A stretch of DNA of 46,032 nucleotides, from assembly GCA_049437345.1 (NCBI GenBank), contig JBMTIN010000001.1, positions 1 through 46,032 on the forward strand. The letters are read 5' to 3'. This DNA comes from Candidatus Marinamargulisbacteria bacterium. Its GTDB lineage: Bacteria; Margulisbacteria; Marinamargulisbacteria; UBA817. Of this stretch, positions 1 through 20,332 are shown in pieces. Under the pieces are notes generated by a model. It saw only the letters and a program-made list of their open reading frames with translations. It did no database searches and was not told the origin of the DNA. The position numbers and the translations under genes were made by a program. Positions within the stretch are counted from its first letter, which is position 1; every line of letters starts with the position of its first letter.

Positions 1-93
1 ATTTTCGGATTCTTTTATTTTATCAATTTATGCCAGAGTTATGCAGAGGTCTTTAGTAGTAACAAATCTCTAGTTAGTAGCTCTGAAACAATC

Positions 94-183
94 TGGCGGA
101 AAGGGTGGGATTCGAACCCACGTTACGCGTTAACGTAAACACGCTTTCCAAGCGTGCGCCTTCAGCCACTCGGCCACCTTTCC
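94..183 (-). tRNA. tRNA-Ser (anticodon GGA), CCA encoded
   Basis: The reverse complement reads GGAAAGGTGGCCGAGTGGCTGAAGGCGCACGCTTGGAAAGCGTG...GGGTTCGAATCCCACCCTTTCCGCCA. It has a 7-bp acceptor stem, anticodon loop TTGGAAA, a long variable arm and a GTTCGAATC T-loop. Confidence 0.9.
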
Positions 184-235
184 GTTACGTTAACATAGTA
201 AAATATTTTTAACTGCACGGCAAATACCCTGGGGG

Positions 236-2173
236 TTATTTTATGGGGGCGGGGGGCTGGACTTGGTTGTTTTCAATGGCGTGCTGGGCCATATAGAGTC
301 GACGCAGTGCCGCTTCAAATAGCGCGCGATCGGTATCATTTAACGTATCATTTATAGGCGTGGTTTCCATGGGGTCGGTGGCCAAATTATAGTAATATAC
401 GTGTTCATTTTTAGCCGAGAAGCGATATTTATATGGGTACGACACCAAACTGAATTGTTTTGCATACGGTTGAATGAGTGGAATCAGGTGGTTTTTTTGA
501 GGTGAAAAAACCGACTGACCCATAAAGTGGGTGTTCGATAGCGGCACTGACAGGAGGTCTAAAATGGTCGGGGCAATGTCTAATTGAGAATGGGCCTCAC
601 GAATGATGGTGGGATTCATTTGATTTGGCCAAGTAAGAAAAAATGGAATTCGAAACGATTCTTCATGGTAGCCGGCTTCAAGGTGAAAATTACCATGTTC
701 GCCCATAGGGAACGCATGGTCGGATGTAATAATTACCAAGCTATTGTCGTATAACCCACGGCGTTTTAGTTCATCAAAAAATACCCGAAGGCCATCATCC
801 ACCAATCGAACCGAATTGGCATAATGGTCATGAATCGATGTTGGCTCAGGGTAGACCTGACGGTCACGAGGAGGCATGGAATTAAAGGGGAAATGGTTGG
901 CAATGGTTAATAGTGTATAGAATTCGGGCGTGTTTTTTGTATGATTGGCATCAAAATAATCAAAGAATCGCTTAAAAAATATGGCGTCTTTCACGCCCCA
1001 GCGCAACGCACCATCGCGATCTTTGGGGTGGAGGTAATCGTCGGCCACAACATAGTGGTCAATGCCACGATCGGTTAAAAAACGAGCGGTGTTATCAAAT
1101 TGACGATTTTTATGTCCGGCAAACGCATGTGTTCGGTACCCCAATCGTTGCAATTCAGTGCCCAGTGAGTCAATGCGCAAGTTAGGGTGTTTGACGAATG
1201 TTTTTCCGCGAAGGGCCGGCATAAACGAAAAAAACAGCCCAAAATGCCCCTTGGCGGTTTGAATAGAGTTACCATAAAAAGGGTCAATAAACACACTATT
1301 GGTTTGTAGTGCATTTAAAAAAGGCGTGTAGGGAATGCCATTGGGAGACACTTTATTTAAAGCGGAAGCATTGAGCGATTCAACCACAATTAGAAAAATT
1401 AAGGGGCGCTTGGCGGTATTATGGTGGGTGGGGAGTTCGCGACGAAATGGGTAGGTATTGGGGGGTAAATGGACGGTTAATTGGTGCGCATTACGATAAT
1501 AAAAATACACACTTTTTGAAAAATTAAGTAATGGGTCCAGCGAATTAATCGGCCATACAATGAGCACCCCAATTACAATCCCCCCCCCCACTTTTTGAGT
1601 CCAGCGACCATGGGCCTGTCCCGATTTAGATAAGGTTTGGTATCGCCATTCAAGCCCTAAAAATACAATGCAAATAATAATGCCATATACCAAGGCACGG
1701 GTGTCCAAGGCATTGGCAATCACATCGGCGGATTCCGGACTAAACGCAATGCTCAGGTTTTCAATAATTAATCCCCACGCCAATAAATCGTTGGCCCCAA
1801 AATGATATGCCGCCGTGGTGGCATACACCAATACCAATAACAGCGATGTGCTTACGCTGACCCAGCGTCGATTAAATACGGTTCCTACAATTTTAAAAAC
1901 GGTTGATACGGTAAATATACTCCACAGAACCAGTGCCAAGCTGGTCCATGTGAACGACAGCCCGCCAGTATCGTTACTGGCAAAGACTTCATACAAATAA
2001 TACAGTTGCAATCCCCCCATAAATCGAGACAATGCGGTGGGACGAAACCCAACCCATGTGGACCACAACGATCGGATGCTTTTGGCCATCATAATCATAT
2101 AGTTACAATAATAGGGACCATTAAAATTAGCAAATCGTTCGATGGAACTAACGCATTTTATGTTACCAATCAT
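236..2173 (-). CDS. LTA-synthase/sulfatase-family membrane protein (phosphoglycerol- or phosphoethanolamine-transferase-like)
   Basis: 645-aa ORF. The N-terminal third is polytopic and hydrophobic. The C-terminal domain has alkaline-phosphatase-superfamily marks: LIVVESLNASAL metal-site region, a candidate Thr nucleophile in GNSIQTAKGHFG, and ITSDHAFPMGEHG. Confidence 0.75.
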   Translation of the reverse strand: MIGNIKCVSSIERFANFNGPYYCNYMIMMAKSIRSLWSTWVGFRPTALSRFMGGLQLYYLYEVFASNDTGGLSFTWTSLALVLWSIFTVSTVFKIVGTVFNRRWVSVSTSLLLVLVYATTAAYHFGANDLLAWGLIIENLSIAFSPESADVIANALDTRALVYGIIICIVFLGLEWRYQTLSKSGQAHGRWTQKVGGGIVIGVLIVWPINSLDPLLNFSKSVYFYYRNAHQLTVHLPPNTYPFRRELPTHHNTAKRPLIFLIVVESLNASALNKVSPNGIPYTPFLNALQTNSVFIDPFYGNSIQTAKGHFGLFFSFMPALRGKTFVKHPNLRIDSLGTELQRLGYRTHAFAGHKNRQFDNTARFLTDRGIDHYVVADDYLHPKDRDGALRWGVKDAIFFKRFFDYFDANHTKNTPEFYTLLTIANHFPFNSMPPRDRQVYPEPTSIHDHYANSVRLVDDGLRVFFDELKRRGLYDNSLVIITSDHAFPMGEHGNFHLEAGYHEESFRIPFFLTWPNQMNPTIIREAHSQLDIAPTILDLLSVPLSNTHFMGQSVFSPQKNHLIPLIQPYAKQFSLVSYPYKYRFSAKNEHVYYYNLATDPMETTPINDTLNDTDRALFEAALRRLYMAQHAIENNQVQPPAPIK

Positions 2174-2283
2174 TACGACATTGTTATATGGTGGTTTGAA
2201 TCTCCCCTGTTTTCATCCTTATTTGGTGTCAATACCGTCGCTAATTGGTCAAATAATGTGCTTAATCCAACCCATCGATATTG

Positions 2284-2470
2284 AGCCACGCTGAGAAATC
2301 AAGGAGTCACGCTGCGAAATCTTAAATATTACTCCACGAAATTTAAAATGACACGATTAGGACAATGGTTGTTTGGGTATTACTCCGACCAGAAAGTAGT
2401 ACTCATGCATTCGCCTCAGAAATAGTATCCTAAATGAATACTATTTCGTGACCGGAGTAATAATACGGCG
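2284..2470. repeat. Repeat-rich, hairpin-forming intergenic segment
   Basis: Direct repeats cacgctgAgaaatc (2287-2300) and cacgctgCgaaatc (2308-2321). Three copies of a tattactcc(g) motif: 2327-2335 (+), 2378-2390 (+) and 2450-2463 (inverted). Nested perfect 10-bp hairpin gaaatagtat (2419-2428) / atactatttc (2438-2447). Confidence 0.6.
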
Positions 2471-2550
2471 GTGTAAAATAATCAGAATGGCGCGCTCAAA
2501 CGGGGGCTTTTTTAATTTTCAACCCAAATAATTGTTTTTTCCAAATTTTA

Positions 2551-2569
2551 ATTGGTGGAGGTGGGCGGA
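2551..2569 (-). repeat. Partial duplicate of the tmRNA 3' end (att-like direct repeat)
   Basis: attggtggaggtgGGcgga at 2551-2569 versus attggtggaggtgACcgga at 3833-3851, which is the ssrA 3' acceptor arm plus CCA plus 2 flanking nt. There are 13 identical nt, and 17 of 19 overall. Confidence 0.7.
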
Positions 2570-2581
2570 TGACGTTAGAAC

Positions 2582-3694
2582 CTATTTTTTAAATAATTCA
2601 AGCAAAGCGGTATTTAAAAACAAGTTTTCTCTTCCTACTTTTTTAGATGTTAAAAAACCTGCTCTTTCAAGTTGATGTAGATATTCAGAGCCTGTTTGGC
2701 GTTTGGCAATATTAGATTTCTCTAAAAATTTTACTTTACAATAGGGCTGTTGAAATAGGGTGTCAATTAACTCTCTCGAATACATTTTAGGAAACTGTCG
2801 TTTCATATTTTTACTGAACTCTCTGATCAATGTTTGTATAGACTGAATCTTTAGAATGGTTTCTTCAGCAGATTGTTTTATGCAAGTTAATATAAACATA
2901 ATCCAGGGTTCATACTCTTTTTTAAAAGTTACTTCCCTAAGCAATGTATAGTAGCGGTTTTTATTTTCAATAATATGGTGGCTTAAGTATAAGATAGGCA
3001 ATTGAATTAAGTTCTGTTGAACAAGATATAGTACGTTTAAGATCCTGCCTGTTCTACCATTTCCGTCATAAAATGGGTGAATGGCCTCAAATTGATAGTG
3101 CATTACTGCCAGTTTAATGAGCGGGTCAACACCGTCTTCACTGTGTAGATAATCTTCCAAATTTTTAAGTTTGTCCCTAATAAGCTGCTCTCCAACAGGT
3201 GGCGTATAAATAACGTTGCCTGTCATTGCATTTTTCAGTGCTGTTCCAGGTAACGAACGTATTCCAGAATCGTGTTGCATAAGTTCTGCTTGTATATCTG
3301 TAATAATATTCGTTGTTAAAAAAGGTCGATCTTGTAAATAAGAAAAGCCCTTCCATAGAGCATCTTTGTACTTTAGAACTTCTTTGGTTGCAGAATCCAT
3401 ATTTTTATCAGGTATAGATAGTGCTTGATATAATTCATCGGTTGTTGTAATAATATTTTCAATTTCCGAGCTATATTGAGCCTCTTTAAGTGATAACGTA
3501 TTGATAAAAATGCTTTGATTTGGAATTGTTTCGGCCAATCCTTTAAGCTCAGCTAATTTTCTGTTTGCCATTATAGATGCTTTTAGTATTGCCTTGGTCT
3601 CTATCTCTTCCTTAGGTGGAAGCAAAGGCAAGTCATTAAATGGTTCGTTTGGGTTAATTTGCACAGTAATATAATATGTCGATATAATCGACAT
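2582..3694 (-). CDS. Fic family protein (AMPylase-type, class II with internal inhibitory helix, C-terminal winged helix)
   Basis: 370-aa ORF with the canonical Fic motif HPFYDGNGRTGR. It has an N-terminal S-x-x-x-E-N inhibitory motif (SSEIEN) and a C-terminal wHTH-like segment (AKRQTGSEYLHQLERAGFLTSKKVGRENLF). Confidence 0.9.
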   Translation of the reverse strand: MSIISTYYITVQINPNEPFNDLPLLPPKEEIETKAILKASIMANRKLAELKGLAETIPNQSIFINTLSLKEAQYSSEIENIITTTDELYQALSIPDKNMDSATKEVLKYKDALWKGFSYLQDRPFLTTNIITDIQAELMQHDSGIRSLPGTALKNAMTGNVIYTPPVGEQLIRDKLKNLEDYLHSEDGVDPLIKLAVMHYQFEAIHPFYDGNGRTGRILNVLYLVQQNLIQLPILYLSHHIIENKNRYYTLLREVTFKKEYEPWIMFILTCIKQSAEETILKIQSIQTLIREFSKNMKRQFPKMYSRELIDTLFQQPYCKVKFLEKSNIAKRQTGSEYLHQLERAGFLTSKKVGRENLFLNTALLELFKK

Positions 3695-3736
3695 GTCAAC
3701 GACATATGTCGATTAAATAGAAAAATATCGACATAT
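3674..3736. promoter_or_regulatory. Operator-like array of ATGTCGAT/ATCGACAT half-sites overlapping the Fic start codon
   Basis: Half-sites lie at 3676-3683, 3687-3694 (contains the Fic ATG), 3700-3713 (perfect palindrome cgacatatgtcg) and 3727-3734. Confidence 0.55.
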
Positions 3737-3834
3737 ATACGGCTAAGCAGGTGCTCGGAATTGAACCCCTTTTTGAACGTAGATATCTAAAGTGAAGATA
3801 AAACTTTTTGGTTATTTGTACCTAAAAAGTTTAT

Positions 3835-4214
3835 TGGTGGAGGTGACCGGAATCGAACCGGTGTCCGTGAATGCGACAAATTAAACCACTACGAGTGTAG
3901 TTCCTGAATGGTTAACCATGCATACCTTGCGCAGGAACTCGCGGGTAAGCATGGGCTAGCGGTGTTGTTTAATGATGGGAACCCGTTAACACGTGCCCAT
4001 CACGAGTTGATAAAATTAAAAAGCCGCGTGAATGATCAACACATCCACGATGCTGCGCAATGACTTAATTAAGCCGCTGCTGCGATTGGTTGATTAAAAT
4101 CAACCGAAACTACGTTGTCTGCAGTTATTTTTGTCTGCCTTTTTACGAGGCCGGGCAGCTCCTCGACTCGCGCTCTAATTCAACGATCATTCTCGTCGAA
4201 GCCAAAACACCCCC
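3835..4214 (-). ncRNA. ssrA: tmRNA (ssrA), predicted tag ADNVVSVDFNQPIAAAA
   Basis: The minus strand starts GGGGGTGTTTTGGCTTCGACG and ends CCGGTTCGATTCCGGTCACCTCCACCA, a tRNA-Ala-like domain. The internal tag ORF GCAGACAAC...GCAGCAGCGGCTTAA (4069-4122) follows an AAAAATAACT resume context. Confidence 0.9.
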
Positions 4215-4301
4215 AAAGATCAAGTTCGTCAGCCATGCTGATACCTTTACAATAGGCGATAATAGTAACGTTTGGCAACTGAGAATATGCCCCAGGCAAC
4301 A

Positions 4302-5609
4302 CTAATTTACAATATGGTCATAAATGGCGGTGAATTGACGCACTTCATCTTGACTTAATGACTGGTGGCGTCGCTTCATCATGCGGTCCAGAGTGGTGAC
4401 AAATGCGTTAATATCGTGTTTTTTGTAGTCATGGGCCTGGCCCCAGGTGAAAGGAGGAACAAAGGTAGAATGAGACGAGTGACCGTACAAACTACAGGCG
4501 CTACCAATTACGCTGCCGCAGGTAATGGCCGTTTGAATGCCTGTTTTAACAAAGTCGCCTAAAACGGCACCCAAGAATAGTTGGTCCGAGGCCATCGATT
4601 CCGGGGTCATGCCACGATGCGTATTCACATCACTATACGAGAGCTTTAAATTCGATATCGTGGTCCCCGCCCCCAAGTTAACCCACTCACCGGTCAGACT
4701 ATTTCCAATATACCCGTCATGACTTTTATTGGAATACGCTTGAATGATGCTACTTTTAACTTCGCCGCCAATTTTGCAATGCGCCCCAATATACGATGAT
4801 GCAATGGCGGTATGGCTATGAATGGCGCTGCCTTCTCCAATAAAACAGGGGCCTTGAATATGTGAAAATGGTTGAATGGTTGCATTATCCATAATCACAA
4901 TGGGGCCCTGCCTCGCATCCAATACCGTGTAGGGGGCAATCGTTGCTGTGCTAGCAATGCTCATACGAGTGTCATTAATTAATGTCGAAAAACTGGCAAT
5001 GTCACCTTCAATTAATTGGCGTTTTGAATAAGTATCAAAATCCGCATTCAGTACGGAAGAAAATGTGGTTAAATAATCCCACCAATGGGTGGTTAGCCCC
5101 AGGTATTTTTTTTCGCTAACAATGCTGTCCTTACGTAGTTGCCCCATAATGGCATCAAACGTCGGCTGTGTTTGCAGTAAGCCAAAGACCAAGGTGTTCA
5201 TCGTCCCTGTCGCGTAAATCATCGGTACGGAGTTGTTGTTAATAAATAATTGGTTTTTGGTGGGCTGAATTCCCGATAATAAGGTATTTAGGTGTGCCAA
5301 TGACATTCCTCCCAAGCGACCATTGACATACAACGTGGGTAGGCTTTTATTTAATTGATTAATGGTCAATGTTGGAAACCGTTTTTTTAAAAAAAGGGCC
5401 TGAGATGGTTGGCAGAGTAACGTTAATGTTTGTTCTGGCAAAAAAAGGCGTAATTTTTCGACCAAATTATGCATGCCATGGGGGATAGTGTATACCGGTC
5501 GTGTTAATTGGTAGGGCGTGGCATTTTTGGCATCGTGGTCTTCAAAAATGCAAATTTGAAATGGGCTATTCACTGTTGCTTTTTGATTTAGATTGACTAT
5601 CGTTGGCAT
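4302..5609 (-). CDS. Putative sugar nucleotidyltransferase / acyltransferase with left-handed beta-helix (alternative GlmU-like family)
   Basis: 435-aa ORF. The N-terminus ICIFEDHDAKNATPYQLTRPV resembles the nucleotidyltransferase-like start of this family. The C-terminal half has hexapeptide-repeat character (IGEGSAIHSHTAIASSYIGAHCKIGGEV...IGNSLTGEWVNLGAGT). The start overlaps the upstream gene by 44 nt and may lie further downstream. Confidence 0.6.
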   Translation of the reverse strand: MPTIVNLNQKATVNSPFQICIFEDHDAKNATPYQLTRPVYTIPHGMHNLVEKLRLFLPEQTLTLLCQPSQALFLKKRFPTLTINQLNKSLPTLYVNGRLGGMSLAHLNTLLSGIQPTKNQLFINNNSVPMIYATGTMNTLVFGLLQTQPTFDAIMGQLRKDSIVSEKKYLGLTTHWWDYLTTFSSVLNADFDTYSKRQLIEGDIASFSTLINDTRMSIASTATIAPYTVLDARQGPIVIMDNATIQPFSHIQGPCFIGEGSAIHSHTAIASSYIGAHCKIGGEVKSSIIQAYSNKSHDGYIGNSLTGEWVNLGAGTTISNLKLSYSDVNTHRGMTPESMASDQLFLGAVLGDFVKTGIQTAITCGSVIGSACSLYGHSSHSTFVPPFTWGQAHDYKKHDINAFVTTLDRMMKRRHQSLSQDEVRQFTAIYDHIVN

Positions 5610-5766
5610 AAAAACCAGTGCCCTTAAATTGAATGCCCACGGATTGTATGACCCGAAAAATATCGGCGGAGCATTGGGGGCAATCGGTCAGGGGGGCGTC
5701 CATCATGGACTGAACGGTTTCAAATTCATGGGCACATGATTTACAGCGGTATTGGTATGTTGGCAT
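5566..5766 (-). CDS. FmdB-family zinc-ribbon protein
   Basis: 66 aa. It reads MPTYQYRCKSCAHEFE...CPQC, the CxxC-x-CxxC zinc ribbon typical of the FmdB/CxxC_CxxC_SSSS family. Confidence 0.8.
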   Translation of the reverse strand: MPTYQYRCKSCAHEFETVQSMMDAPLTDCPQCSADIFRVIQSVGIQFKGTGFYANDSQSKSKSNSE

Positions 5767-8474
5767 TAGCGATCCTTTCGTAATTGACGGATCAATTGAT
5801 CCAGTGTTTTAAATTCAAGACCAAAGTTAACCCAATCCGAGGATTTTAGTCGATCTTTAGCTCTAGAATAGGTGTCAATAATTTTTTTTGTCAACTCATT
5901 TTTAGTATCTGTGGTGGGGACTGGCTCCGAAATTGTAGTGGGCATGGGTGAATTTGTAAGTTGGCGAATTCCATCGGCAATGGATGGGGTCATGGTGACT
6001 TTATCGCCCGCCGCTACAATCACCCGTTTAAGTTCGGGCAACTTACTCTGAGTGGCTTGCAGATAAATAGGTTCAATATAAAAGATGGCATTTTTGTAAG
6101 GAATAACCATTAAATTTCCGCGAATAACACGAGACCCAACTTGGCCCCATAGGGTTAAGTCTTTGGATATGTCGGTATTTTGATCGATTCGAGATTCAAT
6201 TTGCAGTGGCCCATATACCGTTTCTTGCTTGGGGTACTTATATACCGTGAGTTTTCCAAAATTGTCTGGCTCGCATGATGCGGTTAGAATAGACACCAAA
6301 TTATTTTTATTGGATGGGGTTAAGGGCAACATCATGACATATTCATTTCGGTGGGAGACTTGATTATTAAAGTACATGTAATATGGGTCCATGGTAATGC
6401 CCGTTTCCGAATCGTAGGTTTCCGTAGGAAAGGTCCACACATCTTCTTTATTATAAAAAACTTGAGGGTCGGTCATGTGATACGTATTGTAGATGGTTGA
6501 AACAACTTTAAATAAATCTTTTGGAAACCGAATGTGTGCTTTTAGGTCATTTGGCATGTCTGACAATGGTTTCAATAATGATGGGTACATGGCGTGGGTG
6601 CTCATAATAATCGGGTCTTTGTCATCTTTAATGTAAAAATGGGTTTCTCCAGAATAGGCATCCACGGTGGCCACAACAGAGTTTCGTATATAGTTTGTGT
6701 TTCGTGAATATGGAGTGGCGTATGGGAAATGGCTCGATGCCGTGTAGCCATCAATCATCCATATTAATCGACCACGATGAACCACTAAATATGGGTCGCG
6801 ATCGTAAGTAATAAACGGGGTGATCTTTTGAGGGATTAAATGGACATTTCGATCAAATAGCAATCGTGATTTACCATGAATATTTTGGCTAATAAGTAAT
6901 TTAATATCGCGTAGTTTAATGGCAAAAACAAGCCGTTTAAAAAATGAATCCAATACAATGCCCCCGGTCCCCGAATAGTGTGTGTAACGGTTTTCGTTAT
7001 CTTTCGGATAATCAAATTCTTTTTGACGAGTGTTGGCAATGACATAATGATTGGTGGATTCCCCAAAATAAATTTCAGGGCGATCAATCACAATGTTTGA
7101 TTTACTTACGGGTGGAATATCACGAATTAACAATTCCGGCAGCCCTTCGGCATTAAATTGATTCACGGGAACCATGCACAGCCCATAACCATGGGTAAAA
7201 ATCAGATGCTTATTCACCCATGTTTGGGCTTTTTGACTAATTTGCTGAATATCAAGTTCTCGTGCAGATACCATGACCTGCTGGGGTTTATTATTGACCA
7301 TATATCGATCAATATCCACGGTTTGAAATTCATAATATAAGCGGATTTCTTGCAATTGTTTTAATGTTGATTTTAATGGGCCTGGATTCCATAAACGTGC
7401 ATTATTTAAAACGGTGCGAAAGTTCGGGTCATTTTTAATAATGGGTTTTTTTTGATACGCAATGTCCACGTTTTCAATCGCATCAAGTTGATATGCCAAT
7501 TGCGTATAGTGAATATTATGTTTAATAAATGGGATTTCTTTTTTAAATTCATTGGGTGCTACCACATAATTTTGAATAAGCGATGGAATGAGCGTTAGGC
7601 CAATCATATGAAATGCCCCATATCCAATGACCCCGGCCAAGGTCCACCGTAAGGACAAACGAAAAATAAGAAGGATGGCTAAAATGGCCAACCCAACCCA
7701 AATAATTGGCAATACACCAATGGCTTTGAGGTAAACGTTGGCATCCGTGTATCCCAAGCCATGGATAATGCCATTATTTTTAAATAACAGCTGAAACTTC
7801 GCTTGGTAGGCCGAGGCCGAAAATAAGCCAAAAATAAGGGCCAACATTCCCAATACATGCCCGCGAACCCAGTAGTGTGTTTTTGTAAAGAATAGCCCAA
7901 AAAAACCGTGCTGAACATAATGCCAAAGGCTATACAAAAGACCGGTAATGGCAACAAATTTAAGTAATCCAATGACATGACCAATGATCGGAAATAAGAA
8001 CACAAAAAATGAGACATCTTTGTTAAAAATAGGGTCTGAAATATGAAATGGTTGAGCGTAAAATGACAAGACAATATCGTGCCAATAGTGACTGCCCACT
8101 TTGGCCGCTAAAAGAGACACCGTCACGAGTCCGGCCCACTTTAATCCATTCGATATTTTTTGAGTGGTATTGGTGTACCCCGATAACAACGTGCCAATGA
8201 TTTTTTTGAATTGATGCCACAGGGGGGATGATGGTTCATTGGGAATCGTGAATTTAGATCGTTGAATCACTGTACGGGTCAACCGAGCATTAATCGCGTA
8301 AATGCTAAAAATCACACTAAAAAATAACGCAAAACTTCCTAGTTTATAGCCCAATTGGGTAAGATAAGTGCCGGCATAACCCATGGCTTCAAACCAATAT
8401 AAACTGGGAAGAATGTGAGCAATTCCAACGTATAGAATCAATGCGAAAAATAAAAATAAACCAATAAAAATCAT
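5766..8474 (-). CDS. UPF0182 family membrane protein (function unknown)
   Basis: 902 aa. The N-terminus is multi-TM, followed by a large soluble region with family-typical stretches (ARLWNPGPL...LQEIRLYYEF.TVDIDRY, FTHGYG). Its stop overlaps the FmdB start. Confidence 0.75.
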   Translation of the reverse strand: MIFIGLFLFFALILYVGIAHILPSLYWFEAMGYAGTYLTQLGYKLGSFALFFSVIFSIYAINARLTRTVIQRSKFTIPNEPSSPLWHQFKKIIGTLLSGYTNTTQKISNGLKWAGLVTVSLLAAKVGSHYWHDIVLSFYAQPFHISDPIFNKDVSFFVFLFPIIGHVIGLLKFVAITGLLYSLWHYVQHGFFGLFFTKTHYWVRGHVLGMLALIFGLFSASAYQAKFQLLFKNNGIIHGLGYTDANVYLKAIGVLPIIWVGLAILAILLIFRLSLRWTLAGVIGYGAFHMIGLTLIPSLIQNYVVAPNEFKKEIPFIKHNIHYTQLAYQLDAIENVDIAYQKKPIIKNDPNFRTVLNNARLWNPGPLKSTLKQLQEIRLYYEFQTVDIDRYMVNNKPQQVMVSARELDIQQISQKAQTWVNKHLIFTHGYGLCMVPVNQFNAEGLPELLIRDIPPVSKSNIVIDRPEIYFGESTNHYVIANTRQKEFDYPKDNENRYTHYSGTGGIVLDSFFKRLVFAIKLRDIKLLISQNIHGKSRLLFDRNVHLIPQKITPFITYDRDPYLVVHRGRLIWMIDGYTASSHFPYATPYSRNTNYIRNSVVATVDAYSGETHFYIKDDKDPIIMSTHAMYPSLLKPLSDMPNDLKAHIRFPKDLFKVVSTIYNTYHMTDPQVFYNKEDVWTFPTETYDSETGITMDPYYMYFNNQVSHRNEYVMMLPLTPSNKNNLVSILTASCEPDNFGKLTVYKYPKQETVYGPLQIESRIDQNTDISKDLTLWGQVGSRVIRGNLMVIPYKNAIFYIEPIYLQATQSKLPELKRVIVAAGDKVTMTPSIADGIRQLTNSPMPTTISEPVPTTDTKNELTKKIIDTYSRAKDRLKSSDWVNFGLEFKTLDQLIRQLRKDR

Positions 8475-8482
8475 AATAAATG

Positions 8483-8560
8483 TGGTAGCGGCGACTGGAG
8501 TTGAACCAGTGACCTCACGGGTATGAACCGTGCGCTCTCACCAAGCTGAGCTACGCCGCC
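8483..8560 (-). tRNA. tRNA with CAT anticodon (elongator Met or lysidine-modified Ile2), CCA encoded
   Basis: The reverse complement reads GGCGGCGTAGCTCAGCTTGGTGAGAGCGCACGGTTCATACCCGTGAGGTCACTGGTTCAACTCCAGTCGCCGCTACCA, with anticodon loop TTCATAC. It is not initiator-like, since the anticodon stem lacks a GGG/CCC run. Confidence 0.85.
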
Positions 8561-8584
8561 ATGACAGGTATAGTACCAATTTCT

Positions 8585-9343
8585 TTATTCGAGCACCAGT
8601 GTTTTTATTGCGGTTGGTGAGAGTTCTGAAAATTGCCCCGCTGGAAGATCGCCTAGTTGTATTGGGCCAATATCGGTTCGGTGCAATCCGATCACACGGT
8701 ACCCTAAATACTCAAATGATCGTCGTAAAATTCGGTTTCGTCCAATGCCAATGGTAACATGCATCATGGTGGGGTGGGGACCACTAGAAATGGTCATTTT
8801 TGTTGGGCCATCGTCTAAAAAAAAGCCATCACAAAGCCGCTGTTTATCGGCCGGTGCCAATCGTTTATCAAGCGTGATTTGATACCGTTTTAAAATAGAA
8901 AACTTGGGGTGCAGTACCGTTTGAATAAATTGCCCGTCATTTGAAAACAATAATAATCCAGAGGAATGACGATCCAATCGTCCAATCGGCTTAAGTGTGA
9001 TATTCAACCGATATTTTTTTAAGTAATACCCAAGGTCGGTGCGCCCATTGGGGTCGTTAAACGTTGAAATAACATTGAGTGGTTTATGAAACATATAATA
9101 AAGTGATTTTTGCGATCGGATAGGGGTGTTGGCGACAATAATCGTATCCAATGGTGATACCGGGGTTTGCGCATCTCGGATAACCTGTTGATTAACGTGA
9201 ACATTTCCTTCCATAATATATTTCAAAATGGCCCGTCGAGAATGAGGGCTATTTTTTCGGATATAGTTAATGAGCGGTATCTTGAGAGATGGATCCTTGA
9301 ATGTCATACGATAAATAAATCTTATTTTCGTCAAAATGGCCAA
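8585..9343 (-). CDS. rRNA pseudouridine synthase (RsuA/RluB family) with N-terminal S4 domain
   Basis: It carries the catalytic motif GRLDRHSSGLLLFSNDG. The true start is probably the internal Met at 9307 (MTFKDPSL...), which reduces overlap with the upstream gene. Confidence 0.85.
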   Translation of the reverse strand: MAILTKIRFIYRMTFKDPSLKIPLINYIRKNSPHSRRAILKYIMEGNVHVNQQVIRDAQTPVSPLDTIIVANTPIRSQKSLYYMFHKPLNVISTFNDPNGRTDLGYYLKKYRLNITLKPIGRLDRHSSGLLLFSNDGQFIQTVLHPKFSILKRYQITLDKRLAPADKQRLCDGFFLDDGPTKMTISSGPHPTMMHVTIGIGRNRILRRSFEYLGYRVIGLHRTDIGPIQLGDLPAGQFSELSPTAIKTLVLE

Positions 9344-9815
9344 TCATTTTTTGAGCCGTCATAATTAAGTTGTCGGAATTAATATTCAAATGACCATGCG
9401 CATGGAGGATGTTTTTATTTGAATCCAGCATCATTTCATCCGATCGAACCACGTATGTTTGTTGATCCATCAGTAATGTGGCCGATGTTTTGAGCAATTT
9501 TAATATGCCATCCGATGTAGCGTATGCCCCGGTGGGGGATTTGAAGGATAGTTGCTGATTTGGCGAATCCCCAAAAAATGTGCCGTGAATGTCCACCAAA
9601 TAAAAATCATGGGCATCATTAAAAATAGTGGCGGATGTGGCGGTCAGTGACCATTCTTTTTTGCCACTTTTTAATAAGCTGATGGTGACATTTTCAAAGG
9701 TATATTCTCCAGTAATGATATTATTTTTTTTGGACTGTATGGTTGGGGTTCGGGTTGAAACAAAAATGATACCAAGAAGAAGACCAATAATAATTGGGAA
9801 AAATATATGTCGCAT
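9267..9815 (-). CDS. LptC-like (OstA-fold) membrane-anchored protein
   Basis: 182 aa. A single N-terminal TM anchor (FFPIIIGLLLGIIFV) is followed by a beta-rich region. Its repeating pattern resembles LptC/OstA-like proteins. The call rests on pattern only. Confidence 0.45.
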   Translation of the reverse strand: MRHIFFPIIIGLLLGIIFVSTRTPTIQSKKNNIITGEYTFENVTISLLKSGKKEWSLTATSATIFNDAHDFYLVDIHGTFFGDSPNQQLSFKSPTGAYATSDGILKLLKTSATLLMDQQTYVVRSDEMMLDSNKNILHAHGHLNINSDNLIMTAQKMIGHFDENKIYLSYDIQGSISQDTAH

Positions 9816-10447
9816 TATTCAATCCCTACGGGTGGCGTTGGACGGTATTTGGCTTCAATCGATTTCAGTCGTCCAACACTCAGTGTTTCTCCCAATACGC
9901 CAAAGTAGTTTCCCGTTTCATAGTAAGCTTGACCCAATAAAAAGTGAATGGCCGTGGCATTATCATTGATTTTAAGTGCTTTTTTACACCAAGCAATGCC
10001 GTCATCATATTTTTTTTCTTCGCCCAATAGTAGCGCGATAAATCCCATACTCCATACATGATCCGGCTTAATTTTTAAAACCGTTTTAAATGACTGCATG
10101 GCTGCGGCACGATCTTTCATAACATAGTGGGCAAAGGCCAGTTTGAAATGAGACGGCCAATGGTTGGGGTCTTTTTCGATTTCGGCTGTGGCGGTTTTCA
10201 TGACAACTTGTTCGTAATTCTTGTGCAGTTCAGGAACAAGCTTTAGTTGTTCCCATCCCAATTCAATCCATCCAGTAGATGCATAGGCCATAGCAAGCTC
10301 AAATCGAAGCCCCGCATCATTGGGGGTTGCATTAATTTGACGTGTTAATTGGGATTGAATGGCCACATCGTCAGGCGATAATTGGGGGAATGCATGCCCA
10401 ATCATGGTCCACATAAAGAGTATGAAAATAATTAATTTATACATCAT
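9815..10447 (-). CDS. Secreted TPR-repeat protein
   Basis: TPR-like repeats are present (LRFELAMAYASTGW, AFAHYVMKDRAAAMQSFKTVLKIKPDH, LLGQAYYETGNY). The likely start is MMYKLIIFILFMWTMIGHAFP, a signal peptide, at 10447 rather than the ORF-track start at 10519. Confidence 0.7.
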   Translation of the reverse strand: MMYKLIIFILFMWTMIGHAFPQLSPDDVAIQSQLTRQINATPNDAGLRFELAMAYASTGWIELGWEQLKLVPELHKNYEQVVMKTATAEIEKDPNHWPSHFKLAFAHYVMKDRAAAMQSFKTVLKIKPDHVWSMGFIALLLGEEKKYDDGIAWCKKALKINDNATAIHFLLGQAYYETGNYFGVLGETLSVGRLKSIEAKYRPTPPVGIE

Positions 10448-11282
10448 TTTTAATGGTGACGAGGGCTTTTTTAAGCGTGGGTATCCAATGCGCTTGGCTT
10501 GACCGTGATACAATGGCACAGCGAATAATTAATAATCGAATCAAGGTTCGAATAATCATCTTATATGCAACCAATATAGCGTGAGGGTAATATTTTTTGC
10601 ACAAATAGAGGCTACCAATATACCCACCCACCTTGGTTTCAATGGTCTGAAATTTTGTGGATAATCCCCCGTGATGTGTGACCGATACAAAGGGGTAATA
10701 AATGAGTTTCTTTTTTTGTCGTTTTGCATGGATGGCAAAATCCACATCATCATTGTAAAAAAAGAGGTTTCGGTCAAAACCACCCATGTCTTTAAAAAAG
10801 GATGTTCGTATAAAGAGCGATGCCCCCGATAAAAATGATACGGTTTGAACCGTCTTTCGTTTGAATTTTAGGGCATTAAATCCACTTCCTTGTACTTGAA
10901 TACTACCATCGGTATTTAATAGTTGGGGAGATATGCCAACAATGGCCTCATTGGTTGAAAAATGATCAAGAATGGGGCCCATAATATCGTCGGTATGCGA
11001 AAAAACAGTGTCATTATTTAATAGCCAAAGAAACGGGGTAGTAAATTCATCCATGAGTAAATTATGTGCTTGAGGAAACCCAACATTGGTGGGATGTTGA
11101 ATGAGTTTAACATGTTCAGATACATATGGCTCAATCCGTTCAATGGAGTTATCAGTAGAGGCATTATCCCATATGAGCACCTTGAATCGGTGCCCAAATG
11201 AATATTGAGATATAACAGACTGAAGGCAATCATCAATAAATTTGGCGCCATTATAATTTACAATAATAATGGTTAGTATCAT
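10437..11282 (-). CDS. Glycosyltransferase family 2
   Basis: 281 aa. The N-terminus ILTIIIVNYNGAKFIDDCLQSV...WDNASTD and the later NDD/DVD motifs are typical of the GT-A fold GT2 family. Confidence 0.8.
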   Translation of the reverse strand: MILTIIIVNYNGAKFIDDCLQSVISQYSFGHRFKVLIWDNASTDNSIERIEPYVSEHVKLIQHPTNVGFPQAHNLLMDEFTTPFLWLLNNDTVFSHTDDIMGPILDHFSTNEAIVGISPQLLNTDGSIQVQGSGFNALKFKRKTVQTVSFLSGASLFIRTSFFKDMGGFDRNLFFYNDDVDFAIHAKRQKKKLIYYPFVSVTHHGGLSTKFQTIETKVGGYIGSLYLCKKYYPHAILVAYKMIIRTLIRLLIIRCAIVSRSSQAHWIPTLKKALVTIKNDV

Positions 11283-11809
11283 ATGTGATTTATTTGGGAA
11301 GGCTGTGTTATTTCATCAAACAAGGCTGAATGTGGGACCCATGAAACCGTGTGAATGAGTGGGTGGGCCAATGGCGCAATGGTGGATGGCGTGGATTCAA
11401 TGAAATAAGATATGAGGTCGTTCGGGGTCTCGGTTGGCATGGTCAATTGAATCCCCCATAATTCAGACATTGTCACACTTTTTATTATTTGATCAGGGCA
11501 TTCTTTAGATAACGCAATCATTTTAGACGTTAAATTCAAAGGCTTTTTTCGTGAAACATTAAAATAATAATGCGAAGGATTAAACCGTTGTTTATCAAGT
11601 AATAAATGGTGTTTGTTGGGGTTGGAAAAAATATATGTGGATTCAATCACATGACGTAATTCAGATTCAATAATATTTCCCGTAATAGTATATTGTTCAA
11701 ATCGTTGGATGGCCGTGGGTCGGTTCCCTTTTGAGGCATAATGATCAAATAATTGTTGTGCGCTAACAGCCGCTAAATCTTTTTGTTTTAATGTGGTAAA
11801 AATAATCAT
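11279..11809 (-). CDS. Hypothetical protein, possibly a tandem PurS-like (FGAM synthase N-domain-like) protein
   Basis: 176 aa, directly downstream of purQ. Both halves end with a PurS-like xNPxxH/E motif (IFSNPNKHHLLL and PLAHPLIHTVSWV), each preceded by an LK/RK...strand pattern. The similarity is weak and was judged by eye. Confidence 0.35.
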   Translation of the reverse strand: MIIFTTLKQKDLAAVSAQQLFDHYASKGNRPTAIQRFEQYTITGNIIESELRHVIESTYIFSNPNKHHLLLDKQRFNPSHYYFNVSRKKPLNLTSKMIALSKECPDQIIKSVTMSELWGIQLTMPTETPNDLISYFIESTPSTIAPLAHPLIHTVSWVPHSALFDEITQPSQINHI

Positions 11810-11812
11810 GAT

Positions 11813-12550
11813 TTATCCTTTAAATGCATTAAATAAGTCAGTAAAATCCGTTAACGCCAGATGATTTTTTTTGGCATATGCTCGAATGGCATGTGGGTAT
11901 CGTTGTGAATTTAAGGATCGTTCGGGGTGGGGCATTATCGCAAATGCATTTCCTTCGGCGTTACTAATCGCCGCCAATCCGTTGGTTGCGCCATTCGGAG
12001 TGGTGGGAAATGTGGCTTCGGTATGACCATCAATACGGGAATAAACCAACCCACTGGTTGGGGGTGTTTTATGCAAAAAACGACCTTCTCCGTGGCAAAT
12101 TTGAACGGGCAATACAGTGTTATCGTTAAACGATGCTAAAAATGGTGTGTGTCGGTGATTAAATGGTCGCAAAAATCCCCAGTCACACATGAATCCAATG
12201 GGGGTTTCATGGACGTAATTAAGATCAATGATATCGGTGAGTACGTCATGGTGGGAGAACAATCCAGCTTCGACCAATATTTGGGCCCCATTACAAATAC
12301 CTAAAATCAATTTTCCTTTGGTGGATTCATGGCGTAATTGACGAATAATTGGAAGCTTTGCTGCAATTACACCGGCGCGAATCCGATCCTGAAAACTGAA
12401 CCCTCCGGGTAAAATAAATCCTGAAAAACGGTCAAGATTAACAGCTGAATTCCAAGGCACGCGTTCATAAGAAATCGATAATTTATCGAGTGCTTGTGCC
12501 GTTTCATCTTCGCAATTACTGCCTGGAAACTGTAAAATTGCGACACTCAT
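11813..12550 (-). CDS. purQ: Phosphoribosylformylglycinamidine synthase, glutaminase subunit PurQ
   Basis: It has the N-terminal VAILQFPGSNCEDE, the nucleophile elbow GICNGAQIL, then HGEGRF and MPHPERS. Confidence 0.9.
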   Translation of the reverse strand: MSVAILQFPGSNCEDETAQALDKLSISYERVPWNSAVNLDRFSGFILPGGFSFQDRIRAGVIAAKLPIIRQLRHESTKGKLILGICNGAQILVEAGLFSHHDVLTDIIDLNYVHETPIGFMCDWGFLRPFNHRHTPFLASFNDNTVLPVQICHGEGRFLHKTPPTSGLVYSRIDGHTEATFPTTPNGATNGLAAISNAEGNAFAIMPHPERSLNSQRYPHAIRAYAKKNHLALTDFTDLFNAFKG

Positions 12551-13542
12551 CTAAAAAAGTCTCTTTCAACATTAATGGCCGCAATCATTCCATCCGATAC
12601 CGCAGGGGCAATTTGTCGCACTTGTTTACTACGGATATCGCCGGCCGCATATACGCCATGAATATTTGTTCGCATGCAATCATCCGTAATAATAAACCCC
12701 TGTTCATCGAGTTCAATATCAAATCGAACAATATCTTGAGGGGGAACGCGACCAATATAAATAAATACACCCTGGGCATCCAGCCAGGTGGATTGTCCGG
12801 TAATAATATTTTCGGTCAATACGCGTTCTACGTGGTCTACCCCAAATAATTCGGTGACTTTGGCGTTCCACATAATGGTAATTTTAGGGTTTGTTTCAAT
12901 CGTCTGTTTTAGTTTCTTTACGGCACGAATCGTGTCATAATTATGTACCATATATACATGATTTACGTATTTCGATAAATAATCGGCGGCATAGCAGGCA
13001 CAATTCCCCCCCCCAATGACAACCGCATTTTTGTTATGGTAATGGCTGGGGTCCGCTTGAGCGTAATATGAAATCCCTTGTCCCAGAAACCGTGATTCAA
13101 AATCGGCATTTAGTTTCTTTGGGTCCAACCCAATGGCCAATATCACGGTTTTTGTGCGGTAATTATGCCCCAGCGATGTCGTTACTGTTTTTACGGGGCC
13201 GTCAATACTAATAAAATCCATGACGGTTTCACAGGTATAGTAAATATCATGTCGAAATAATTGATCTTCCATAGATCGACCCAAGTCTGGCCCTAAAATA
13301 CCCTCGGGTTGACCAATAAAATTATCAATCCGACAAGCCGTGGAGCATTCTCCTCCAGGCAGTGCTTTTTCAATAACCAATGTTTTCAAATCGGCGCGAG
13401 ACGCACAGACGGCTGCGGACATGCCCGCCGGACCTGAACCCACAACAATTACATCAAATAAATCATTATTTTCAGGTGACTTTCGTATTAACGCTGACTC
13501 CGGTTGCGTTGCGTCAATGGAATCCGCCGTCGAAAAAACCAT
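12547..13542 (-). CDS. Thioredoxin-reductase-like FAD-dependent oxidoreductase lacking the canonical CxxC
   Basis: Low-Mr TrxR architecture is clear (VIVVGSGPAGMSAA, AVVIGGGNCACYAADYL, GVYAAGDIR). However, the CATC position reads YAQA and HRRD reads HNYD. A CSTAC pair lies in the FAD domain (nt 13333-13347). Confidence 0.7.
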   Translation of the reverse strand: MVFSTADSIDATQPESALIRKSPENNDLFDVIVVGSGPAGMSAAVCASRADLKTLVIEKALPGGECSTACRIDNFIGQPEGILGPDLGRSMEDQLFRHDIYYTCETVMDFISIDGPVKTVTTSLGHNYRTKTVILAIGLDPKKLNADFESRFLGQGISYYAQADPSHYHNKNAVVIGGGNCACYAADYLSKYVNHVYMVHNYDTIRAVKKLKQTIETNPKITIMWNAKVTELFGVDHVERVLTENIITGQSTWLDAQGVFIYIGRVPPQDIVRFDIELDEQGFIITDDCMRTNIHGVYAAGDIRSKQVRQIAPAVSDGMIAAINVERDFFR

Positions 13543-13544
13543 GG

Positions 13545-14036
13545 TTACTCCTTAATAGTAAATTTCGTTCGTTTGTTTGAAATAATCGTGTCTGTCTTTA
13601 AGTTATAGATTAATTGATTCGATTTAATTTGGCTACCATTTTGTTTGATATAAACGTTGTTGAGCAATGTTAAAATAGCCCCGTTTTCAATGATCAAGTC
13701 ATCTGATGTGGCCTGTATGGATGTGGTTGTCAATTCAATATTACGGTGACCGGTTATTTTATTTTTTAGGATATTGGCGGTAAATTGCTCCCCTTTTAGG
13801 GTTGAATTGTTATGTGTAATAACAACATTTGTATTAAATTGGCCGGTTTGGGTGTCAATATTATACTGAAATTGCTGAGCACGTAGTCGGATATTGTTGT
13901 ATTCAAATTGAGCATTGCCAGAGGCCTGCATGGTGTCGGGCATGGCTAACGTAATGGTATCGGCTGAAAATTGAATGGATGGCGCGCCCAATAGCCCATA
14001 TGACATGATAATAAAGGAAAGAATGAATTGAACCAT
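13545..14036 (-). CDS. LptA/OstA-N-like periplasmic protein
   Basis: 163 aa. A signal-like N-terminus is followed by the repeated beta-jellyroll pattern typical of LptA (ADTITL....ASGNAQFEYNNIRLRAQQFQYN....GQF..NVVITHNNSTLKGEQ). The call rests on pattern only. Confidence 0.5.
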   Translation of the reverse strand: MVQFILSFIIMSYGLLGAPSIQFSADTITLAMPDTMQASGNAQFEYNNIRLRAQQFQYNIDTQTGQFNTNVVITHNNSTLKGEQFTANILKNKITGHRNIELTTTSIQATSDDLIIENGAILTLLNNVYIKQNGSQIKSNQLIYNLKTDTIISNKRTKFTIKE

Positions 14037-14108
14037 ACTCTATAGATCATATATTTATAAATTAATTCTTAACAATACTAATTTTTATTGATACTATATT
14101 TTCCAAGT

Positions 14109-14184
14109 GATCCGGTAGCTCAGTTGGTAGAGCACCTGACTTTTAATCAGGTGGCCGTGAGTTCGACCCTCACCCGGATCACCA
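14109..14184 (+). tRNA. tRNA-Lys (anticodon TTT), CCA encoded
   Basis: GATCCGGTAGCTCAGTTGGTAGAGCACCTGACTTTTAATCAGGTGGCCGTGAGTTCGACCCTCACCCGGATCACCA, with anticodon loop CTTTTAA. Confidence 0.92.
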
Positions 14185-14195
14185 CTATTTTTACC

Positions 14196-14774
14196 ATGAA
14201 CAATAATTATTTTCCGATACTTCAATCTCATATGTCTGCCACGCGATTGGATCACGTGATTCGTGTTCAGAAAATGGCTGTTTTTCTGGCCGAATCCCAT
14301 GGTTTAGATACATCGAGCATATCTGTCGCGGCACTATTGCATGATATTGCAAAGCAACATACCCCAGAGACATTGACGGCATTGGGATTGGATGTTCGTG
14401 CGTTGGATGATTGCTGGAGGGCCTATCCCGCTGTTTGGCATGCCTTTGCTGGTCCATTGCTTGTGCATCATGTGTTTCCTAATGAACCATCGTGTATTGA
14501 TTCGATGATTGAATGTCATACCACTGGCAAGGCCAATATGTCCGACAATGACATGGTTGTATTTATTGCCGATTTTATTGAGCCTGGTCGATGTTTTCCT
14601 GAAAGGGAGGGACTGGTGAGTATGGCCACATCCAATTTAAAAACAACGGTGGCGACCATTACCGAGATGACATTGAAGAAACTTGAAATAAAGCAACAAG
14701 CGGTGCATCCATTGACACAAGATTGTTGGGCCTGGTCAAAGTCAGCAATTTCTCGATATGGTAATGCGATATGA
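14196..14774 (+). CDS. yqeK: HD-domain protein YqeK (bis(5'-nucleosyl)-tetraphosphatase family)
   Basis: The HD motif LLHDIAK is present, and the position upstream of rsfS fits. The start is placed at ATG 14196 because the ORF-track start at 14088 runs through tRNA-Lys. Confidence 0.75.
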   Translation: MNNNYFPILQSHMSATRLDHVIRVQKMAVFLAESHGLDTSSISVAALLHDIAKQHTPETLTALGLDVRALDDCWRAYPAVWHAFAGPLLVHHVFPNEPSCIDSMIECHTTGKANMSDNDMVVFIADFIEPGRCFPEREGLVSMATSNLKTTVATITEMTLKKLEIKQQAVHPLTQDCWAWSKSAISRYGNAI

Positions 14775-19783: not shown

Positions 19784-19860
19784 GGGCCCATAGCTCAGTT
19801 GGTTAGAGCGTCCGGCTCATAACCGGCAGGTCCTAGGTTCAAGTCCTAGTGGGCCCACCA
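19784..19860 (+). tRNA. tRNA with CAT anticodon (Ile2-lysidine-like or elongator Met), CCA encoded
   Basis: GGGCCCATAGCTCAGTTGGTTAGAGCGTCCGGCTCATAACCGGCAGGTCCTAGGTTCAAGTCCTAGTGGGCCCACCA, with anticodon loop CTCATAA. Confidence 0.85.
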
Positions 19861-19995
19861 TGGTTTCCCTTTGTTTTTTAATCTTCAACAGCATGTGTAT
19901 GAATGTGGAGAGAGAATATTCGTGGGAGGTAAGTGGGTATGATGGCCCTTGGTTTGGTGTTGATTTTTTTATTTAACAGTGGTTTAGTGATTTGT

Positions 19996-20332
19996 GGTAG
20001 GCGATGTCGTCGCTTTGGGTCTTTGATTTAAAGAGGAAAGTCCGGGCTCCATTGGGCAAGGTGCCTCCTAACGGGAGGAGGAAGTAATTCCATGGAAAGT
20101 GCCACAGAAAGCAAAACCGCCATTTTTTGGTAAGGGTGAAAATGTGAGGTAAGAGCTCACAAGGTTAATTGGTAACAGTTAACTTGGGTAAACCCCACCT
20201 GGAGCAAGGTTAAATAGGGAAACAGAAACGGCCCGTTTCGTGATGATTTTCGGGTAAACCGCTTGAGGCCAACCGTGAGGTAGGTCCTAGATAAATGACG
20301 GCACATGACAGAACCCGGCTTATACGCCTACC
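19996..20332 (+). ncRNA. rnpB: RNase P RNA, bacterial type A
   Basis: The conserved P4 strands GAGGAAAGTCCGGGCTCC and ACAGAACCCGGCTTA are present, with GTAAGAGCTCAC and GGGTAAACCCCACC-type elements. P1 pairs ggtaggcg (19996-20003) with cgcctacc (20325-20332). Confidence 0.9.

Follow-up and report, generated by a model that had tools for sequence, protein, structure and literature searches.

How did a Fic gene come to stand directly behind ssrA, the gene for transfer-messenger RNA (tmRNA), with a repeat of the ssrA terminus on its far side? The question is raised by a segment of about 1.3 kb near the start of a 46,032-nucleotide (nt) stretch of DNA from a Candidatus Marinamargulisbacteria bacterium (GenBank assembly GCA_049437345.1, contig JBMTIN010000001.1, positions 1 to 46,032 of the forward strand), which was analysed as a whole and is called the window here. 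The terminus of a tmRNA gene is a classic integrase target, and a first-pass annotation of the window, made from the sequence alone, had interpreted the Fic segment as an island inserted at the 3' end of ssrA. This interpretation is now supported by empty sites in related contigs, by foreign composition and by the lack of an integrase. The segment is an insertion of compositionally foreign DNA with exact borders at a short core, and its gene encodes a SoFic-family class II Fic protein.

An intact ssrA was identified on the minus strand by ARAGORN and by Rfam (RF00023, 172 bits, model positions 1-374), which agree on a full-length gene that is not truncated. The last 17 nt of ssrA and two flanking nt form the 19-mer ATTGGTGGAGGTGACCGGA (3833-3851), and a search of the entire window at up to three mismatches returned a single other match, at 2551-2569, on the same strand and with two mismatches. 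The repeat reported by the first-pass annotation (13 nt identical, 17 of 19 matching overall, same orientation) was confirmed by this search, and its view that chance recurrence is improbable agrees with the dinucleotide-preserving shuffles, none of which gave a second match (0/100). The exact shared core comprises 13 nt, CACCTCCACCAAT on the minus strand, and occurs at 3845..3833 and 2563..2551 in direct orientation; around it a looser similarity reaches 22 of 27 nt (repeat family D2). This core, the acceptor end of the tmRNA, has no palindromic arm-spacer-arm structure as read from its letters, no formal dif or attC scan having been run. A sub-threshold Rfam match to tmRNA_permuted (24.5 bits, 3865..3755) was dismissed, as it is driven by the 3' end of the real ssrA.

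For the gene on the other side of ssrA (4302..5609, alt-GlmU-like), a homologue of 97% identity (P0001) occurs on nine metagenome contigs. Five of these extend beyond ssrA: L001, L003, L004, L005 and L006, each from a different JGI sample and matching the window at about 97% identity. The site is empty in all five: ssrA is joined directly to the sequence that lies below position 2551 in the window, with one copy of the core, as the first-pass annotation had proposed to look for. Alignments of the five contigs with the window run through ssrA to window position 3826 and restart at 2569, and the overlap in the contig is exactly the repeat. The occupied state is known from the window alone. A further look-up with the LtaS-like protein encoded beyond the segment yielded a matching contig that ends 192 nt upstream of the gene, short of ssrA.

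Read on the minus strand, the empty site has the junction ...GATTCCGGT-CACCTCCACCAAT-TAAAATTTGG..., and the window has ...GATTCCGGT-CACCTCCACCAAT-AAACTTTTTAGG... at the left attachment site (attL) and ...GTCATCCGCC-CACCTCCACCAAT-TAAAATTTGG... at the right one (attR). The insert thus measures 1,282 bp counting one copy of the core, and its element-specific part 1,269 bp. The distal repeat had initially been described as a displaced partial copy of the tmRNA 3' end. This holds for the 13-nt core, which is shared, but not for the bases to the left of the attR core (GTCATCCGCC), which belong to the element and not to ssrA, and this puts the strand exchange inside the 13-nt core, at the very tip of the 3' end. 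The segment has several properties of an island at a tRNA or tmRNA gene: ssrA is full length with the 3' end of the empty-site allele, a direct repeat of the target 3' end lies at the far border (13 nt exact, 17 of 19 overall), and relatives have an empty attB joined exactly at the core.

Overall divergence between the window and L001 is about 3% and is not raised near the junction, where two differences were counted in about 300 aligned columns spanning it; the two ssrA alleles differ by only two single-nucleotide polymorphisms. The composition of the insert is foreign, as a proposed comparison of the Fic gene with its flanks also indicated. Its guanine-plus-cytosine (GC) content of 33.7% compares with a mean of 41.1% for the window, and no other window of equal size has a lower value; GC at third codon positions (GC3) is 28% against 36-46% in neighbouring genes. 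The tetranucleotide distance of the insert is 0.473 against 0.269 +/- 0.029 (z ~7), which makes it the most deviant composition in the 46 kb.

No integrase domain was detected in the insert or elsewhere in the 46-kb window by Pfam scans of the window open reading frames (ORFs), nor was one present in the precomputed annotation of L001, a syntenic contig that corresponds to window 93-15609. The remaining window holds housekeeping genes (UPF0182, LtaS-like, dnaG, rpoD, rnpB, ychF, the ATP synthase operon, fab genes, cysS, pan genes and others). The only sizeable ORF between the repeat copies is the Fic ORF (2582..3694; as called and as aligned with homologues, the gene ends its upstream extent at 3664 and encodes 360 aa), in line with the earlier statement that integrase, excisionase and other cargo are absent. 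SoFic being the sole gene, the segment has no integrase of its own, as an island of the Islander type would. Its attL and attR flanks without integration or transfer genes are those of a cis-mobilizable element (CIME), as defined in a review (PMC5704250). No terminal inverted repeats pair the two insert ends, and the repeat is the tmRNA terminus itself, unlike the terminal inverted repeats and target-site duplications at varied sites of a transposon or miniature inverted-repeat transposable element (MITE).

As a separate observation, the window and a sister strain part exactly at the 3' end of a tRNA-Ser gene (window 94; window 1-93 versus L001:14171-15324 and L187:2131-4130). There the sister strain carries a large serine recombinase that is truncated (278 aa, with Recombinase and Zn_ribbon_recom domains) and a fragment of an IS3-like transposase, and this tRNA-Ser 3' end looks like a second variable tDNA site. 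Nothing connects the truncated recombinase to ssrA.

The predicted protein of the insert (P0121) contains the Pfam domains Fic_N, Fic and SoFic-like_C, the last being a winged helix-turn-helix (wHTH) at the C-terminus. It matches the PADLOC SoFic model with 386 bits over profile positions 13-359 of 361, the SoFic structures 3EQX and 9TC4 in the PDB with E ~1e-106, and the NCBIfam SoFic model with 478 bits, which is under the 550-bit equivalog cut-off. The catalytic motif HPFYDGNGRTGR at residues 196-207 fits HxFx(D/E)GNGRxxR, and the motif SSEIEN at residues 65-70, N-terminal to the Fic motif, fits the class II inhibitory pattern (S/T)xxxE(G/N). By a full-length single-protein match (PADLOC, three Pfam domains, PDB; equivalog cut-off of NCBIfam not reached) and by both motifs, the gene is assigned at the sequence level to the SoFic-family class II Fic AMPylases.

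SoFic, or Sofic, has been described as a toxic single-gene abortive-infection defence (PMC12249575); SoFic is reported to AMPylate switch I of EF-Tu and, as a dimer, to bind its own promoter at a distance of no more than 100 bp from the start codon (bioRxiv 10.64898/2026.07.09.737422). The window protein resembles the characterised systems (Shewanella oneidensis SoFic; E. coli Sofic, PMC12249575) in its full-length match to models and structures, in the class II inhibitory helix motif, the Fic catalytic motif and the C-terminal wHTH, and in an AT-rich promoter region with specific palindromes, which is consistent with the reported binding to the own promoter. It differs in an identity of about 50% to characterised members, with 478 against 550 bits at the NCBIfam cut-off, and in the absence of an AS1-like small downstream gene from the window, where the stop codon is followed by the att core after only 18 nt. 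By analogy, a defence role through AMPylation of EF-Tu upon phage infection may be assumed for the window SoFic. The features of the locus are listed in Table 1.

Table 1. Features of the ssrA-Fic locus in window coordinates.
Feature	Position	Strand	Remarks
ssrA (tmRNA gene), intact	3835..4214	minus	ARAGORN and Rfam; tag peptide ADNVVSVDFNQPIAAAA
attL core CACCTCCACCAAT	3833..3845	minus	last 11 nt of ssrA + 2 nt; exact direct repeat; once in empty sites
attR core CACCTCCACCAAT	2551..2563	minus	exact direct repeat; border versus empty site
Element-specific DNA	2564..3832	minus	absent from L001, L003, L004, L005, L006
AU-rich 12-bp hairpin + U-run	3801..3832	minus	inverted repeat I13; begins 2 nt past the ssrA CCA
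Possible fossil tmRNA-like 3' fragment GGTTCAATTCCGAGCACCTGCTTAGCC	3741..3767	minus	4 nt upstream of distal operator
Distal operator-like inverted repeat ATGTCGAT, 13 nt, ATCGACAT	3706..3734	.	conserved upstream of all close Fic homologues
Predicted sigma-70-like promoter	3671..3699	minus	-35 TTGACA 3699..3694; -10 TATTAT 3676..3671; promoter scan 11/12 matches
Proximal candidate operator palindrome TGTCGAT-ATA-ATCGACA	3677-3693		enclosed by promoter, between -35 and -10
SoFic-family class II Fic protein (P0121), 360 aa	2582..3664	minus	GTG start at 3664, from homologue alignment and P0121
Right end (RE) GTTCTAACGTCATCCGCC	2564..2581	minus	between Fic stop codon and attR core; missing from empty site
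Native ssrA-distal flank, intergenic before LtaS-like gene	2174..2550	minus	outside island; contiguous with ssrA in five empty-site contigs, 96.6% identity

In an alignment of the regions upstream of close Fic homologues, the same blocks recur in the same order: ATGTCGA-N13-15-TCGACAT, the -35 box TTGACA, TGTCGAT-N3-ATCGACA, the -10 box TATTAT and, about 7 nt further on, the start codon. This short distance makes a leaderless mRNA likely for SoFic, in the close clade as well as in the window. The distal palindrome of one homologous locus, L179, carries symmetric compensatory changes (ATGTCC...GGACA), as expected for an operator to which a protein binds. The proximal palindrome occurs only once in the window, and TGTCGAT-N3-ATCGACA was found by a strict regular expression upstream of at least 73 of 160 SoFic homologues (loci L016-L175), most of them away from tRNAs; together with extra half-sites, it precedes SoFic genes in Flavobacteriia, Proteobacteria, Cyanobacteriota and other groups. 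Being common to many SoFic genes that mostly do not lie beside tRNAs, the palindromes are candidate gene operators rather than recombination sites, through which SoFic may regulate its own expression. TGTCGAT-N3-ATCGACA is thus a concrete candidate operator for the SoFic family, for which the preprint on promoter binding defines no motif (bioRxiv 10.64898/2026.07.09.737422).

The hairpin next to ssrA has a folding energy of -10.1 kcal/mol (z = -3.95), none of 200 shuffles being as stable, and the native flank has no comparable structure; it may be a terminator supplied by the element, which would insulate the toxic gene from ssrA read-through. Between hairpin and distal operator lies the tmRNA-like fragment. 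The T-loop motif GGTTCRAWTCC occurs in the window only in tRNA-Ser, in ssrA and in this fragment, with 0.12 occurrences expected window-wide; the alignment of the fragment with the ssrA 3' end is better than 1,992 of 2,000 shuffles, and the fragment aligns with the position of the true tRNA-Met 3' ends at two homologous loci (L014 and L176). The Fic module may once have been attached to another tmRNA or tRNA terminus, in an earlier host or with an earlier att module, and the fragment would be a fossil of that state. RE was also considered as a decayed tmRNA T-arm and rejected, the alignment being no better than shuffles.

When the Fic protein was compared with a metagenome collection from which the source samples are evidently missing, all matches except L096 were distant, with identities of at most 57%. 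The nearest Fic homologues, like the window gene, lie directly after RNA genes and on the same strand. An 80%-identical Fic follows tRNA-Asp (L010, L011), and 67-68%-identical ones follow the tRNA-Met behind dnaG-rpoD in Marinamargulisbacteria, with 7 nt from the tRNA end to the operator (L014-L016, L176-L178). In L176 and L014 the order is tRNA-Met, 7 nt, operator, Fic, one unrelated ORF and a conserved right end of 36-43 nt (RE') finishing in CCCCACCA, and the units, of 1.7 and 1.9 kb, have no integrase. RE' was tried as a decayed half of tRNA-Met, and this was rejected, the alignment being no better than shuffles. In the window, dnaG-rpoD-tRNA-Met is followed by rnpB (19784-20338; RNase P RNA, 295 bits), where these relatives have the SoFic islet, and the tRNA-Met site of the window is accordingly empty of SoFic. 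At the tRNA-Asp site, L010 differs from L011 by a 146-nt insert right after the tRNA (L010:4075-4270), bounded by a 50-nt direct repeat (92% identical) that consists of 20 nt of the tRNA 3' end and flank; the approximately 96 nt in between are GC-rich, and the insert may be the stump of another element.

In L179, direct repeats of 43 nt (10149-10191 and 11374-11416), both RE'-CCCCACCA, enclose a Fic unit of 1,225 bp. An operator block begins 7 nt after each repeat, but no Fic gene accompanies the second one. Around it (10149-11500) lie P2-like prophage tail genes on the other side and the rpoD 3' end, and RE' is shared with the adjacent prophage end; the arrangement looks like a cassette array whose second block is a vestigial tandem cassette. 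L012 and L013 have a homologous RE and tmRNA core directly upstream of a 73%-identical Fic, a similarity that beats 1,995 of 2,000 shuffles. A circular permutation of the window element would give a colinear order, as at an attP-like or tandem junction. Fic is followed there by further genes (DUF3892 and others), and no integrase is visible on the L012 and L013 contigs.

Two islands at tRNA-Leu genes belong to hosts of other phyla. A Cellvibrionaceae metagenome-assembled genome has a 2.2-kb integrase-less island with SoFic only and a 23-nt direct repeat (L047, 9489-11746). In Leeuwenhoekiella aestuarii (L025, 9468-20360) a 10.9-kb island runs from tRNA-Leu through SoFic and cargo to a tyrosine integrase at the far end, next to which a direct repeat of at least 30 nt is found, its att being different from that of the window. 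In family-level relatives of the window strain (L180-L182, about 53% identical) the ssrA terminus ACCGGTTC(G/A)ATTCCGGTCACCTCCACCA is conserved and the DNA downstream is entirely different. Their interval from ssrA to tRNA-Ser is variable, 3-4.6 kb long, with unrelated ORFs of unknown function; neither repeats nor an integrase, except for distant Xer-like genes, were found at these ssrA loci.

The explanation that we prefer, though only tentatively, is that the Fic segment is a CIME-like, non-autonomous and integrase-less integrative element that arrived as a small unit, with a recombinase acting in trans. The 1,282-bp unit would have entered the 3' end of ssrA by conservative site-specific recombination, in which the ssrA terminus paired with a 13-bp block of identity carried by the element (RE-CACCTCCACCAAT-hairpin), catalysed by a recombinase of the tyrosine or large serine type encoded elsewhere, in a sister island or prophage with the same att specificity. 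Integration would have restored an intact ssrA and put the terminator-like hairpin right behind it, followed by a self-contained SoFic module, which would consist of a promoter that two palindromic operators flank and overlap, and of a SoFic gene that is probably leaderless. By homology, SoFic as a dimer would repress its own promoter through the C-terminal wHTH, and phage infection would cause SoFic to AMPylate EF-Tu, so that translation stops (abortive infection).

Arrival as a unit is supported by the recurrence of similar minimal units (L179, L176, L014 and L047, one of them in tandem with a vestigial cassette) and by the insert itself, in which there is no gene debris and RE abuts the Fic stop codon. 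The homologous RE and core in L012 and L013 indicate that the element ends are shared with another locus, and the tmRNA-like fragment beside the operator suggests that the Fic module earlier adjoined a tmRNA or tRNA 3' end. Several results weigh against this explanation. Neither a helper recombinase with the same att specificity nor a second copy of the window element was found, the nearest relative having 78% DNA identity and lying at tRNA-Asp. An attP (circle) junction was likewise not found, the attL/attP junction pattern being without a match in viral contigs. Outside the core, the right ends show no significant similarity to the cognate RNA genes, and the attR of the tRNA-Asp islet L011 is unproven, its alignment being no better than shuffles. 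A tRNA or tmRNA gene lies within 1.5 kb of 9 of 80 more distant SoFic homologues, so that the association is an enrichment only and not a general property of the family, and the rule that SoFic sits next to tRNAs was rejected. Finally, an internal deletion in an integrase island with tRNA-proximal SoFic, such as L025, would give the same end product. The att pattern TTCTAANNTCNTCNNNNCACCTCCACCA was matched, among 179 loci, by L012 and L013 only and by no viral contig, and a comparison of the islet DNA with plasmids gave only short matches internal to Fic.

The comparative data thus lean slightly to a small recurring unit, yet they also show an integrase-bearing architecture able to yield a stump. 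An origin of the latter kind is possible, if somewhat doubtful: an integrase-bearing island would have been inserted at ssrA with SoFic in the ssrA-proximal position, and deletion inside it, in one or more events, would have removed everything from the Fic stop codon up to the 18-nt RE, the integrase with it, while the att cores were kept. L025 has exactly the parent architecture that this requires, further genes follow Fic in L012 and L013 with RE and core on the other side, SoFic/MloA homologues stand at the extreme ends of Streptococcus prophages, and a toxic, self-regulated defence gene is of the kind that selection would keep; CIMEs, too, are thought to arise by this route. However, the deletion must have stopped within a few nt of the Fic stop codon and spared only 18 nt and the core opposite, the decay must postdate the split from the empty-site lineage (about 3% divergence), and the insert contains no pseudogene debris. 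Moreover, the minimal units of L179, L176, L014 and L047 are independent, which repeated decay to one form explains less easily. A separate proposal, by which the islet formed in another strain of the same species and came in on transforming or transduced DNA through crossovers in ssrA and the downstream flank, seems improbable to us. The flanks are near-identical core genome that would allow such exchange and the window has no integrase, but no import tract is seen, with two differences in about 300 columns across the junction and two sites only in ssrA, and the origin of the islet is merely shifted to another strain.

The Fic segment could instead be ancestral and have been deleted in relatives between the 13-nt repeats: presence and absence alone cannot polarise the change, and the five empty contigs may represent one lineage. 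Four lines of evidence make this very unlikely: the segment has the most deviant composition in the 46 kb (GC3 28% versus 36-46%, tetranucleotide z ~7), L180-L182 have entirely different DNA past the same ssrA terminus, close Fic homologues lie at other tRNA genes in other genomes, and precise loss at the att cores would in effect be the excision of an island. Scarcely credible is the insertion of a transposon or MITE-like element whose 13-bp target-site duplication is the repeat. A short direct repeat around a small insert without a recombinase would fit it, but there are no terminal inverted repeats and no transposase, the repeat coincides with the terminus of the tmRNA gene, and a homologous RE and core are already formed in L012 and L013. 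Returning to transfer as a small unit, we consider it unlikely that SoFic modules in general, each with operator, promoter, Fic gene and a short right end bearing a tRNA or tmRNA terminus copy, make up a distinct family of miniature non-autonomous cassettes, routinely trans-mobilised among the 3' ends of ssrA, tRNA-Met, tRNA-Asp and tRNA-Leu, swapping att modules, forming tandem arrays and specialised, like MITEs that depend on integrases, in the spread of a one-gene defence; that the SoFic dimer and the att-proximal operators take part in the directionality of recombination is speculative.

Integrase-less ssrA islands bounded by ssrA direct repeats and proposed to be CIMEs have been described in Dehalococcoides (McMurdie et al. 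2011, PMC3146451). Like the window islet, they have a single-copy ssrA target, a short 3'-end direct repeat and low GC, some of them lack an integrase, and just upstream of the repeat they have a conserved motif that belongs to the element and cannot be aligned with ssrA, analogous to RE in the window; tandem arrays also occur. In contrast, they are multi-kb islands with rdhA operons, whereas the window unit has 1.28 kb and one gene; their repeat is 20 bp with a crossover inferred in the T-loop, whereas the window core is 13 bp at the extreme 3' end; and their family integrase is the large serine recombinase DsiB. The CIMEs related to integrative and conjugative elements (ICEs), as well as to the integrative and mobilizable ones (IMEs), of Streptococcus (PMC5704250) also have attL and attR flanks without integration or transfer genes, and occur in tandem with related elements; decay is assumed to be their origin, and a related element's integrase to mobilise them. 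For these, a helper ICE or IME and cis-mobilisation (accretion, co-excision) were shown experimentally, while no helper was found for the window element, whose host phylum, to judge by the best named homologues probably Margulisiibacteriota, is uncultured. With the tDNA and tmRNA islands of Islander (PMC4383910) the islet shares the regenerated target, the direct-repeat fragment at the far border, foreign composition and absence in relatives; those islands carry their own integrase gene, and the islet, at 1.3 kb, is far under their usual size. The Leeuwenhoekiella island likewise has SoFic with the same operator palindrome first after the tRNA 3' end and a tRNA 3' repeat at the far border, but it differs in its tyrosine integrase and about 8 kb of other cargo, in its target gene and phylum, and in a Fic protein that is only 56% identical.

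The window islet is accordingly a clean but essentially ordinary minimal integrase-less ssrA island with a known single-gene defence; its kind is already known, and current understanding is not overturned by it. It is a minimal natural example of a one-gene anti-phage system grafted onto an essential RNA gene, in which the att cores, the empty site and the element arm can all be read, and it should lend itself well to a search for the cognate recombinase, in a candidate phylum that lacks genetics. A recurring pattern is that SoFic is the sole or the first gene of islets beside tRNA and tmRNA genes.

Two minor observations concern the native flank below the insert. The intergenic DNA between ssrA and the LtaS-like gene is repeat-rich at 2290-2470, where an inverted repeat with 29-nt arms (2378-2406 / 2434-2462) and short direct repeats are found; this stretch has no Rfam match and is conserved in the empty-site contigs. 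A 65-nt segment across the start of the LtaS-like ORF (2153-2217) is present in the window and in L004 and missing from L001 and L003, and this indel shifts the predicted start of the LtaS-like protein (645 versus 662 aa).

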